Virus record (IMG/VR): IMGVR_UViG_3300013383_000003 | Direction: 5' to 3' (one strand) | Source of the DNA: an uncultured virus (IMG/VR IMGVR_UViG_3300013383_000003) | Taxonomy: Duplodnaviria; Heunggongvirae; Uroviricota; Caudoviricetes; Crassvirales | DNA length: 37,962 nt | Shown here: positions 7,157 to 17,690 of the stretch, piece after piece | How the letters are laid out: every line of letters starts with the position of its first letter | How positions within the stretch are numbered: the stretch's first letter is position 1 | Notes under the pieces: generated by a model | The model's database searches: none | What the model was told of the DNA's origin: nothing | Seen by the model: only the letters and a program-made list of their open reading frames with translations | Position numbers and translations under genes: made by a program

Positions 7157-7825
7157 TTACACGGCATTAATGGATTTCACATGTTTTATAGTTTTTCTAC
7201 CAAAATCCTCTGTTAAGCATATATGTTTTATATCTTCTAAACTTAATGAGTTTATTGATATAATATGTCCTTCAGTAGTAAGAGCCACACCATTATGTTT
7301 TCTTGTACTGTTATTCAAACTATGATAAGACACTTTACCTGTGTAAGAAGCTACCTCAGGCATAGTAATATTTTCTTTAATAACATTAAAGCCTGTATCA
7401 TAGATATTATATCTTTTTCCAACTCCTTTCCTAGGATTTGTATAACCTTTCTTTGTATAAAGCTCCTTAGTGGCCAGAGATATTCTATCTTTCCAACTTT
7501 GAGTCCTTTCACAAAGTACTGGAGTTATAATATTAAAAGCTGGTTGGTACTTTTCTATGTAATACCACTCTAAATCTCTTAGTACTTCTTCATTAAACTC
7601 AATTAACTTAACTAAAACTTCAAACTTGAAAGAATCCTCTCCATATTTATTATAGGCGTTCTGTAAGTACTTAGAAGAATGCCTATTACCTCTTAGTAAT
7701 GCAAGGTGTTGTTGCCATCTTTCTTTAATATTTACAGAAGAGCCAATATAAATTTGAGAGTCTTTAATACAAGTTATTCTATATACTCCACACCAATTTT
7801 CGTAGTCTTTACCTATATTCTGCAT
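7157..7825 (-). CDS. GIY-YIG homing endonuclease (intron 2)
   Basis: CGVYRI...IYIGSS..IKERWQQH motif, later E and N residues; lies inside the intron. Confidence 0.9.
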   Translation of the reverse strand: MQNIGKDYENWCGVYRITCIKDSQIYIGSSVNIKERWQQHLALLRGNRHSSKYLQNAYNKYGEDSFKFEVLVKLIEFNEEVLRDLEWYYIEKYQPAFNIITPVLCERTQSWKDRISLATKELYTKKGYTNPRKGVGKRYNIYDTGFNVIKENITMPEVASYTGKVSYHSLNNSTRKHNGVALTTEGHIISINSLSLEDIKHICLTEDFGRKTIKHVKSINAV

Positions 7826-8405: not shown

Positions 8406-9044
8406 TTACTCATTCACACGGCAGTGCCTATAATTCTCATATTTAGCATTTTGTTGGATAGACCTAATAACTAAGGGAGTAAGTTTTTCAAATTTATATG
8501 AAAACCTATAACCTTTGCATTGCTGGTATGTACCGTTTAGTACTCTACAAATACTTGAAGCAGCTATATTTAACTTATTTGCTGTATCTTTTACACCATT
8601 AGAATTTACAAAGAGGAAATTCCCATCTAGGTTATACACATATATTGGTATTGGATTGAAATTCCATTCCAATTTTCCTTCTTTGTGCAGTCTCCTTCTA
8701 GTTTCTCCTTGCTTAATCCTAGACTCTTTAGACAAAACATTTCTTTTTACCTTTTTGGTAATATTATACTCTGCTCCAAATAAGTCAATACAATATTGTT
8801 CTCTCCTAGTTAATATAGTAATATCACATTTTTCAATTACAGACCATTCAAATGAAGATTCTCCATATTTATTCCAAGCATTTTGTAAATAAGCATTTTC
8901 ATGCTTATTATGTCTCAACAGAGCAAAATGCTTCAATAGCCTTTGATAAATATTCTTTGAACTTCCTATATAAACTTTATAATTTACTACATTCTCTATA
9001 CAATAAATGCCAGATACTTTTAACTCTTTTGTAATCTTTTCCAT
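8406..9044 (-). CDS. GIY-YIG homing endonuclease with C-terminal NUMOD1/HTH-like module (intron 1)
   Basis: SGIYCI...VYIGSSKNIYQRL..H; C-terminal PIYVYNLDG...ASSICRVLNG...GYRF. Confidence 0.9.
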   Translation of the reverse strand: MEKITKELKVSGIYCIENVVNYKVYIGSSKNIYQRLLKHFALLRHNKHENAYLQNAWNKYGESSFEWSVIEKCDITILTRREQYCIDLFGAEYNITKKVKRNVLSKESRIKQGETRRRLHKEGKLEWNFNPIPIYVYNLDGNFLFVNSNGVKDTANKLNIAASSICRVLNGTYQQCKGYRFSYKFEKLTPLVIRSIQQNAKYENYRHCRVNE

Positions 9045-16230: not shown

Positions 16231-16426
16231 TTATCCTTGGTTATTCAAGAATTTTTGGGATAATAAGTCTTGTAAGTTAGTGAGGGTGTGGTAGTTAGCT
16301 AAAAATTTCATCTTATACCACTCTACATGTTTATTAATTCTATCTGCTAATTCTTCTATAACTAATTGTTTAATTTTATACTTTAGTTGCTAAGGCTTTT
16401 AAATCTTCTAAATCTTCTTGTTTCAT
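16231..16426 (-). pseudogene. Small gene apparently broken by one extra A (or a sequencing error)
   Basis: MKQEDLEDLKALATKV* continues as YKIKQLVIEELADRINKHVEWYKMKF...NNQG* if one A of ACTAAAGTAT is removed. Confidence 0.4.
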
Positions 16427-16483
16427 GGTGTTTATTTCTTTGTGGTTATATATTTATTAAATGGTATCTCCTTATTACTTTAT

Positions 16484-16609
16484 TTAGCTATTATCCTTCT
16501 TAATATAATTAACCAATAAGCAAAGAATTAAGTAACATATTAGCATTAATATTCCACCAAATATACTTTTCATTAAGTAATAGAATGCTTGTATTAAGAA
16601 GTCTGTCAT
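16484..16609 (-). CDS. 41-aa hydrophobic peptide
   Basis: MTDFLIQAFYYLMKSIFGGILMLICYLILCLLVNYIKKDNS; AACCATG start context like neighbouring genes. Confidence 0.5.
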   Translation of the reverse strand: MTDFLIQAFYYLMKSIFGGILMLICYLILCLLVNYIKKDNS

Positions 16610-16622
16610 GGTTAATTTGTTT

Positions 16623-16661
16623 AAAAAAAAGCTTAAGGCTGTGTTTTTCACAGCCCTAAGC
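16623..16661 (-). terminator. Intrinsic terminator
   Basis: GCTTAGGGCTGTG-AAAAA-CACAGCCTTAAGC followed by T8, 8 nt after the stop codon. Confidence 0.85.
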
Positions 16662-16669
16662 CTTAGTAG

Positions 16670-16993
16670 TTAGAAGTGGAGGTTTACAGTCTGCCAAGCA
16701 TCTGCACCTTGCTTACAGAGTTTGAATTTGCCATTATCAAGCTCAACAACTTGCAAAGAATCTTGTTGCATAGCAATTTGTTTTGCTGAGAGTTCACCAA
16801 GGTTACTGCTGAAGTTAACAAGGGTAATTGGTTTGCCAGGTGCTGTAAAGGCACAGGAAGTAAAGGCTTCGCCAGTTTCTTTGTTAACAAATGGAGCAAC
16901 CTTCATTGTTCCATGTGATTTAGCAAAGTCTACTAATGTCCAAGACTGCTTAATACCAACTAAATTACCGTTGTTTTGTGTAAATTTAGCCAC
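16670..16993 (-). CDS. Hypothetical early protein (107 aa from GTG, MAKFTQNN...)
   Basis: GTG at 16993 aligns with ATG in the duplicated leader copy; the 20-codon extension to 17053 is not kept in frame in the other copy. Confidence 0.7.
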   Translation of the reverse strand: MAKFTQNNGNLVGIKQSWTLVDFAKSHGTMKVAPFVNKETGEAFTSCAFTAPGKPITLVNFSSNLGELSAKQIAMQQDSLQVVELDNGKFKLCKQGADAWQTVNLHF

Positions 16994-17138
16994 GATGTTT
17001 AAGCCCATTTCAGAGCCTGCTGTATAACTAAAGTGTATACTACCTAACTGCATTACTACTAATTTTAGCTTTCTGAGGGCAGTTAATTCTCAGTTAGCTT
17101 TTATCTATCAAGATATAAGAATAGTGTTGTTTAGATTA
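16981..17138 (-). repeat. 158-bp direct repeat, copy A (leader of gene 16670..16993)
   Basis: Aligns end to end with 17177..17334, with scattered substitutions and small indels. Confidence 0.95.
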
Positions 17139-17145
17139 TTTATTT

Positions 17146-17174
17146 AAAAAAGAGTAGTATTATACTACTCTTTT
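17146..17174 (-). terminator. Intrinsic terminator between the repeat copies
   Basis: AAAAGAGTAGTA-TAA-TACTACTCTTTT then TT. Confidence 0.75.
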
Positions 17175-17176
17175 GT

Positions 17177-17334
17177 TAAATTTAGCCATGACGTTTAAGC
17201 CCATTTCAGAGCTTTGCTATATAACTAAAGTGTATACTGCCTAACTGCGTTACTATTATCAGCTTTTCTGAGGGCAGTTAATCCTCAGTTAGCTTTTTAT
17301 CTATCAAAATATAAGAGGAGTGTTGTTTAGATTA
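17177..17334 (-). repeat. 158-bp direct repeat, copy B (followed by a 9-aa mini-ORF and a terminator)
   Basis: See copy A; period 196 bp. Confidence 0.95.
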
Positions 17335-17441
17335 AAAGATTATCAATGAAAAGCACTTTACTTCATTAAAGTACTGCACTAAAAAGCTATATAATAAGTA
17401 TGCTTGTAGAATAGTAGTTACTAAAAATAATAGTACAGAGA

Positions 17442-17690
17442 TTACTCTGCACTACTATTTAATAGTTTGTCAAGCTCATCCTTACAGTCATAATAGTCAC
17501 TATCAAAGGAATCTACCCAATTATATTCTTCATTAAGAGTGTCTAAGAGAGTTTCAGTAGCTTTGTAGTAATTGCTGTAAGAGTTTATTAACTTTTCATC
17601 ACTAACTACAGTATTTTGACATACTGTAAAGCCTGTGATTATACCTACTATAGCAGATATAATACATGAAAGTAATAACTTTTTCATCAT
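17442..17690 (-). CDS. Hypothetical protein with signal-peptide or anchor-like N-terminus
   Basis: MKK followed by a hydrophobic stretch and an acidic C-terminal part. Confidence 0.7.
   Translation of the reverse strand: MMKKLLLSCIISAIVGIITGFTVCQNTVVSDEKLINSYSNYYKATETLLDTLNEEYNWVDSFDSDYYDCKDELDKLLNSSAE

Follow-up and report, generated by a model that had tools for sequence, protein, structure and literature searches.

A window of 37,962 nucleotides (nt) from an uncultured crAss-like phage (IMG/VR record IMGVR_UViG_3300013383_000003) carries two copies of a structured leader on its minus strand. One of them, copy A, precedes the gene for a protein of 107 amino acids (aa), while the other, copy B, ends in a terminator-like hairpin after nine codons. 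We use "the window" for this whole stretch. Among the phages of the human gut the crAss-like group is dominant and, to our knowledge, almost nothing has been learned about its post-transcriptional gene control. The window is a gut-type crAss-like phage: terminase, portal, primase and helicase modules were present, and the sole nucleotide match among deposited phages was to cr116_1 (Crassvirales, Steigviridae). Its G+C content is about 30% and its genes form two divergent blocks, with terminase, portal and tail genes on the plus strand and a helicase, a primase, a Sak4-like annealing protein and a RIIA-like gene on the minus strand. The duplicated leaders belong to a group of small units that heads the replication-side block; every unit in it has a promoter-like box and a terminator to itself.

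A reading made from the sequence alone (below, the sequence-only reading) had described two diverged minus-strand copies 196 base pairs (bp) apart, and this was confirmed, with an identity of about 90%. A repeat search returned four collinear blocks, D2 to D5, at a spacing of 195-197 bp and with identities of 76-97%. Global alignment of the two copies gave about 16 differences in about 172 columns, extending from TAATCTAAAC to ACAAAA. Both copies have the same order of a promoter-like box, a leader of about 125 nt and a start codon. The recurrent box within each repeat, AATCTAAACAACACTnnTCTTATATyTTG, had not been singled out before; its pattern matched two sites in the window, compared with 0.06 expected. 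The copy A box differs from the copy B box at three positions, and there copy B agrees with the box of the cr116-type relatives, whose leaders are preceded by the same promoter-like box. A third, looser copy, AAACAACACTCC...TAT..TTTGR, was found at 17786-17757, in the unit of an upstream gene for an 82-aa protein. The recurrent boxes presumably act as promoters.

Such boxes stand in tandem ahead of successive small gene units, both in the window (17786-17757, 17333-17305 and 17137-17109) and in relatives (L002, L003, L005, L021 and L022). Their downstream half, CCTATAnyTTGR, is common to all the phages; the upstream half is specific to the lineage, for example AATCTAAACA.., GACACAYCACCAC.. or AGCCTAAAT..GTCACT, which suggests a lineage-specific factor that co-evolves with the box.

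Beyond the leaders the two copies part, in the way that had been described. In copy A, GTG-GCT-AAA-TTT at 16993 opens a 107-aa open reading frame (ORF), here called gene A, with a terminator of its own. In copy B, ATG-GCT-AAA-TTT at 17189 opens a mini-ORF, MAKFNKRVV, that stops inside a terminator-like hairpin; its codons 1-4 and the first codons of gene A are homologous. This hairpin is a stem-loop of 12 pairs followed directly by TTTTTT, with a folding energy of -16.3 kcal/mol (z = -5.9), and none of 200 shuffles folded equally well. Only 3 of the 12 pairs are G-C pairs, so the efficiency of termination is uncertain. The terminator scan assigned the hairpin to the plus strand because its stem absorbs the A and T runs.

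The leader consists of a long hairpin P1, an H-type pseudoknot (PK) between the P1 loop and a segment about 25 nt downstream, helices P3 and P4, a spacer and the start codon. In both copies, P1 is formed by CTGAGR and CCTCAG, and the loop, TTAACTGC, has its complement downstream in GCAGTTAG. P4 is a 4-bp hairpin with the loop UGARAU, from which 10-15 A/U-rich nucleotides lead to the start codon. The most variable part, as had been noted before, is the stretch that links P1 to the 3′ strand of PK, with a 3-nt indel and substitutions. Coordinates are given in Table 1.

Table 1. Features of the duplicated leader locus and its surroundings in the window.
Feature	Position	Strand	Evidence or remark
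Gene A terminator	16664-16628 (feature span 16620..16664)	-	16 pairs, 7 of them G-C, then T-run
Gene A (107 aa)	16670..16993	-	GTG start; in-frame alternative ATG at 17008 inside P4
Copy A leader	16994..17108	-	covariance-model match, 99.6 bits, E = 7.8e-17
Copy A outer P1	17099-17096/17070-17067	-	
Copy A P1	17093-17088/17078-17073	-	closing pair A.C
Copy A PK loop	17086-17079/17051-17044	-	
Copy A P3	17040-17036/17026-17022	-	
Copy A P4	17016-17013/17006-17003	-	
Copy A promoter-like box	17109..17137	-	sequence, repeat search, pattern count, A/B alignment
Copy B terminator-like hairpin and U-run	17146..17174	-	fold energy
Copy B mini-ORF, ATG..TAA (MAKFNKRVV)	17160..17189	-	sequence, A/B alignment
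Copy B leader	17190..17304	-	covariance-model match, 100.3 bits, E = 5.7e-17
Copy B outer P1	17294-17291/17264-17261	-	
Copy B P1	17288-17283/17273-17268	-	
Copy B PK loop	17281-17274/17248-17241	-	
Copy B P3	17237-17233/17223-17219	-	last pair G.U
Copy B P4	17212-17209/17202-17199	-	
Copy B promoter-like box (AATCTAAACAACACTCCTCTTATATTTTG)	17305..17333	-	sequence, repeat search, pattern count
Gene for 82-aa predicted membrane protein	17442..17690	-	ORF list; upstream of copy B
Promoter-like box of the 82-aa gene unit	17757..17786	-	repeat family D1, sequence, pattern scan

The pseudoknot, which had been proposed from the two copies of the window, was kept through compensatory changes in the leaders of several phage lineages. 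Ten leaders aligned end to end. The same architecture was found in cr116-type relatives (L001, L002, L014 and L016), in L035 and in a second leader type (L004, L020 and L038-40); more distant forms were those of L003, L005, L019, L043, L021 and L022. We tested P1 and PK together on the first half of 15 leaders, with P1 as nested brackets and PK as a pseudoknot. Standard pairs filled 86.7% of the 255 helix cells compared with 71.4% in shuffles, and none of 500 shuffles scored as high. For PK, 96.7% of the cells were paired, while slid registers gave 34-51%, and three of the eight pairs had changed on both sides (26:64 as GC, AU, UA and GU; 27:63 as AU and GC; 29:61 as UA and AU). P1 was paired at 77.8% and showed changes on both sides at all nine pairs.

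The other helices were scored separately. All 44 cells of P4 were paired (34-50% in slid registers), with compensatory changes at three of four pairs, and RNAalifold recovered PK and P4 when no structure was supplied. For P3, alignments made with MAFFT or fitted to the model were misregistered between leader types; it was therefore scored only on seven rows of the first type, and otherwise by single-sequence folds. In these rows 28 of 28 cells were paired, one pair being compensatory. The second leader type has another hairpin in the position of P3, unrelated to it in sequence and with compensatory changes of its own. In addition to the paired positions, many unpaired nucleotides were invariant across the aligned leaders.

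When the whole window was compared with Rfam 15, only three tRNAs reached their gathering score. At E <= 10 over 16400-18000, matches were at chance level only and fell on the terminator hairpin; the best had 21.5 bits, below its threshold of 48.4. The covariance analysis of relatives thus supported covariation in P1, PK and P4 for a family that has no Rfam match, and the earlier claim of a conserved cis-acting RNA held up, with these covarying helices lying between box and start codon. We have little doubt that the structured leader RNA is real; it is an RNA family of crAss-like phages, new to Rfam.

The table of P1 and PK pairs also bears on the strand, as 38 of its 255 helix cells were G.U pairs. 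Read from the opposite strand, each would become a C.A mismatch; the fold is therefore specific to the coding strand, which points to RNA. This count is the first of several observations against a signal in DNA, in which hairpin and pseudoknot would be a folded-DNA promoter for an injected virion RNA polymerase, or an origin element. The locus does lie near the divergent junction of the genome, as such a signal might. However, the structure extends over about 125 nt between a separate conserved box and the start codon, at a constant distance from the latter, and the virion-polymerase transcripts of phage phi14:2 are reported to have no common upstream motif (bioRxiv 10.1101/2020.03.07.982082). 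We regard a signal in DNA as extremely unlikely. On the plus strand, 17073-17093 and 17268-17288, where the P1 complement is followed by TTAGCTTTTT, were flagged as terminator-like, probably as a side effect of the hairpin.

The distribution of the leader was followed with a covariance model, R1, that contains P1, P3 and P4 without PK. In the window it had exactly two matches, copies A and B. In ten related phage records there were 11 strong matches (E <= 3e-5), and all 11 were directly upstream of a gene of the 107-aa protein family. Weaker matches in related records had E = 0.03 and 0.08, and one with E = 0.14 in L017 was downstream of its gene. A search with the leader DNA pattern hit two loci in viral contigs, both of the cr116 type, and none in genome contigs. 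The leader is tied strictly to one small, beta-rich protein family, and R1 can be used to annotate it in other crAss-like genomes.

This tie helps to judge whether the leader could be a general 5′ stabiliser or translation enhancer, providing high early expression in a host without Shine-Dalgarno-led initiation, in which case copy B would be a neutral by-product. The fold is 5′-proximal and conserved, the short A/U-rich spacer before the start is kept, and the gene is one of several clustered small units, each with box and terminator, that head the replication module, all of which would suit such an element. Yet the fold is bound to one gene family: the neighbouring 82-aa unit has the same box type but a different leader, and paralogues within one genome can carry a different leader class. 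The many invariant unpaired nucleotides suggest, moreover, a specific partner. We consider a general 5′ element unlikely.

The different class, seen in other genomes, is longer and was not matched by R1. These leaders of about 200 nt have a GGGATATACCCC hairpin right after the box (L006-L008, L025-L029, L036, L037 and L044-L052) and may be a second structured leader class. A similar hairpin, GGGTTAATCCC, lies just past the box of the 82-aa gene in the window.

The protein encoded by gene A has 432 homologues at E <= 0.001 (of 434 candidates), nearly all of them without a name. With 329 matches among 50% cluster representatives, the family is widespread in crAss-like phages. Searches of Pfam and PHROGs and a profile search of PDB gave nothing significant, and PADLOC gave no family at E <= 1. 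The AlphaFold2 model is beta-rich, with a mean predicted local distance difference test score of 79.9, and its matches in BFVD were uncharacterised crAss-like proteins only. Nucleic-acid binders with an OB-fold appeared only as weak matches (Z <= 3.5; E >= 0.1). In the ESM Atlas, one neighbour cluster had 23% Phi29_Phage_SSB members, SSB standing for single-stranded DNA-binding protein. This pointer to a Phi29-type SSB was not confirmed: PF17427 matched neither the family nor five related phage records. The SSB-like nature of the 107-aa protein is a lead only.

A domain of about 95 aa from this protein was also seen inside the long proteins P0121, P0130, P0140, P0146, P0179, P0189, P0202, P0229 and P0252, in the company of BspA-type leucine-rich repeats, protein kinase domains, MORN repeats and Sel1 repeats. 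Its place beside such varied repeat and kinase domains indicates a domain that moves between proteins and also occurs outside phages.

The GTG start of gene A corresponds to ATG in all eight outgroup leaders, and P0001, the closest relative, with a protein 93% identical to the 107-aa protein, starts with ATG as well. Translation of the P0001 leader in frame with its gene (31 codons) differs from that of copy A in one residue and the first codon. The 3′ side of the P4 loop contains an AUG in all aligned leaders (CUGARAUGR), at 17008-17006 in copy A and at 17204-17202 in copy B. In the window this AUG shares the reading frame of the gene (MGLNI + VAKF..), and with GTG in copy A it could now serve as the actual start. 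The relatives checked (cr116-type and L035) have it in another frame, where it would begin a short upstream ORF that overlaps the start.

The tie to one family, the invariant unpaired bases and the fixed spacing of 10-15 nt between P4 and the start suggest a specific partner that acts on translation. The leader would thus act in cis on its own mRNA, most likely as a protein-binding translational operator or a tuner of expression. We consider action in cis on expression quite probable; that the leader is an operator for a protein, or an autoregulatory element, is a more tentative proposal. In either form it offers a concrete, testable regulatory element and a handle on the function of a widespread protein family.

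The leader pseudoknot of T4 and T2 gene 32 mRNA is the translational operator of the phage single-strand DNA-binding protein, and by analogy the leader described here may work most like it, possibly bound by its own gene product as in T4. In both cases a phage mRNA leader has an H-type pseudoknot close to its 5′ end; here P1 and PK covary in 15 leaders. Each is bound to one gene, which stands beside a replication module, and the geometry is similar, with first and second stems of about 6 bp and 7-8 bp and a first loop of a single nucleotide. The two are not related by sequence or through Rfam. In the crAss leader P3 and P4 take the place of the long unstructured tract of gene 32, and only the 10-15 nt before the start are unpaired. 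In contrast to the gene 32 product, the 107-aa protein is not a recognisable SSB. Were the leader the operator of an autoregulated, SSB-like early protein and copy B a naturally evolved, separately transcribed decoy that titrates the repressor and so raises gene A expression, a circuit of the gene 32 type would operate in the most abundant group of gut phages, with a phage-encoded RNA sponge made from the gene's own leader. We regard this combination as a long shot.

Two further pairings had been read from the window copies, and each held only in part. One was a switch in which the 5′ CTAACTG pairs with CAGTTAG. This pairing is possible in both copies of the window but is not kept in relatives: as a family feature it was rejected, since 41.9% of its cells were paired in 15 leaders against 38.8% in shuffles, similar to slid registers. 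The other was a stem between TTTAGTTAT and RTGGCTAAA that buries the start codon. It too is present in both window copies but not kept in relatives, and was rejected as a family feature at 47.8% paired in ten leaders against 45.5% in shuffles. Both alternative pairings are confined to the two window copies. The minimum-energy fold by ViennaRNA includes the start-codon stem in the window, where this stem overlaps the 3′ strand of a weak P3, so that the folds compete. It is possible that the switch helix and the start-codon stem are lineage-specific features of the window, and a lineage-specific occlusion of its start codon is likewise possible.

The absence of these helices from relatives bears on an action of the leader on transcription, either as a small-ligand riboswitch or as an RNA for terminator read-through like putL and putR of phage HK022, which are antiterminator RNAs. 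In the put-like version, copies A and B would be tandem promoters for gene A. As with put, a folded RNA lies close to the promoter in a phage early region with terminators downstream: the element stands just past a promoter-like box, the units are separated by terminators, and the fold is a compact pseudoknot with conserved unpaired bases. However, in relatives we found no terminator/antiterminator alternative that uses the conserved helices, and neither the CTAACTG switch nor the start-codon stem is conserved. The kept spacing from P4 to the start points instead to translation. No riboswitch or put family was matched in Rfam and, unlike put, the leader is linked to one gene family at a fixed spacing to a start codon. 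An effect on transcription is quite unlikely in our view, and we would likewise put little weight on copy B being an extra promoter that feeds gene A by read-through.

For the origin of copy B, a plain tandem duplication of 196 bp was rejected as the whole story. The high identity between the copies stops at ACAAAA (codons 5-7); between this point in copy B and the copy A box lie about 28 nt of unique sequence with the terminator. A plain duplication of blocks that are about 90% identical would not insert a terminator between them. In the complete phage G001 there are two full box-leader-paralogue units, the second of them behind a homologue of the 82-aa gene. That gene of the window, 49% identical to L060:1927-2169, is syntenic with the 80-aa gene that precedes the leader-plus-paralogue unit in G001. 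The terminator of copy B, AACAAAAGAG followed by the hairpin, resembles the 3′ ends of both G001 paralogues (ACAAAGAGGGAG... and ACAAAGGGGGAGC...). Local alignment with the terminator of a G001 paralogue scored 20 compared with a shuffle mean of 13.7, a score that 10 of 500 shuffles reached.

These features could be explained if whole cassettes of promoter, leader, gene and terminator are prone to duplication in this family, G001 being an example. The upstream cassette of the window would then have lost its coding sequence, probably by a deletion between ACAAAA in codons 5-7 and ACAAAG just before the terminator. The remnant would be a leader-only mini transcription unit whose RNA would measure about 155-160 nt, and we read it as most likely a relic of recent origin, not a dedicated decoy RNA. 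We give a probability of roughly 0.55 to this reading as a whole, that is, a new cis-acting leader RNA together with copy B as a paralogue unit that lost its coding sequence. Taken by itself, copy B is probably the relic of a lost paralogue. It offers a natural experiment on the origin of leader-only RNAs by gene loss or, less likely, on an operator-decoy RNA.

The differences between the copies were polarised with eight outgroup leaders. The changes assigned to copy B are at three unpaired positions that do not vary in the other leaders (8 of 8 outgroups), and at the end of P3, where a C to U change gives the G.U pair. PK and P4 are unchanged in both copies. Only 2 of 54 paired nucleotides differ between the copies, compared with 11 of 73 unpaired ones (one-sided Fisher p = 0.03). 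This avoidance of paired positions indicates constraint since the duplication, though it is not demonstrated for the time after gene loss.

Several observations weigh against the combination of a conserved leader and a relic copy. Some concern the fold: for P1 and PK, 59 of 500 shuffles reached the observed value in a measure of further pair types; for P4, 326 of 500 reached the observed number of pairs changed on both sides; and for P3, 56 of 500 reached the observed pairing. The nested-fold z scores of single leaders were ordinary (0.16, -1.37 and -0.20), as given by a tool without pseudoknots. Others concern the protein: its model had no match at E <= 0.001 in Foldseek against PDB and no significant fold match in the VIA wide structure search (best Z 4.2), and autoregulation by the 107-aa protein, while possible, is an analogy and not a finding. 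Copy A, which kept its gene, is itself derived in its start codon (ATG to GTG), in the A.C closing pair of P1 and at three box positions. Copy B is intact in all its helices, with a better P1 than copy A, an ATG and a box nearer the consensus, and this is also how a functional RNA is expected to look. The proposed deletion is read from a short microhomology and a weak terminator similarity. The absence of copy B from relatives says little, because in the best DNA-bearing relatives the gene is only 62-66% identical to gene A.

The intact state of copy B is what a functional, free-standing decoy RNA would show, one that titrates a factor binding the gene A leader, be it the protein from that gene or one of the host, and so tunes gene A. 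Such a decoy could be read from the intact box, closer than that of copy A to the box of the relatives, from a set of helices that includes a fully paired P1, from the strong terminator directly after it, and from the A/B differences that avoid paired positions. The decoy had been proposed in the sequence-only reading, but no gene-less leader was found outside the window, either in the ten related phage records scanned or in any fetched locus. The derived state of copy B at three otherwise invariant positions also argues against a decoy. The conservation of its helices may date from a time when copy B still had its gene, and a decoy is without a known binding factor. We consider a dedicated decoy unlikely and prefer the relic of a duplicated cassette.

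A likeness to type III toxin-antitoxin organisation had been suggested as well. In systems of the ToxIN type, an RNA repeat array and a terminator are followed by the toxin gene. The locus shares with them a pseudoknot-capable unit of RNA only, a terminator and then a protein gene, in a phage setting. Instead of an array of short repeats under a single promoter, it has two units of about 196 bp, both headed by a separate promoter-like box, and relatives carry just one leader, with no unit of RNA only. For membership of the 107-aa protein in the ToxN, AbiQ, CptN or TenpN types, we found no PADLOC, Pfam or PHROG family and no significant PDB fold match. The type III reading was therefore not supported.

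RNAs from intergenic regions have been described in another crAss-like phage, phi14:2. Abundant early intergenic RNAs of unknown function and middle promoters of the tripartite host type have been reported for it (bioRxiv 10.1101/2020.03.07.982082). By that description, the two cases would share non-coding RNA from intergenic regions among small genes. In phi14:2 these are long intergenic transcripts and not gene leaders, from a phage of another subgroup with another host. The element was not described among the matches listed in a literature search on pseudoknots, leaders or structured RNAs of crAss-like phages, and the accessible part of PMC8375218 contained nothing on phage promoters or leaders.

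Another viral contig, L009, has a PK-like element at 941-999, where the hairpin loop TTGACAGC is complementary to GCTGACAA downstream. A distant homologue of the 107-aa protein (41% identity) is encoded about 500 nt downstream of it.

Upstream of the cluster in the window, about 720 bp between the divergent blocks (17790-18514) contain no ORF of at least 30 aa. They are followed by three tRNA genes on the plus strand at 18515-19100, for Ile-GAT, Thr-TGT and Arg-TCT. Inside the replication block, two ORFs on the minus strand (7157-7825 and 8406-9044) resemble homing endonucleases of the GIY-YIG type (PHROG E = 1e-18 to 1e-19).

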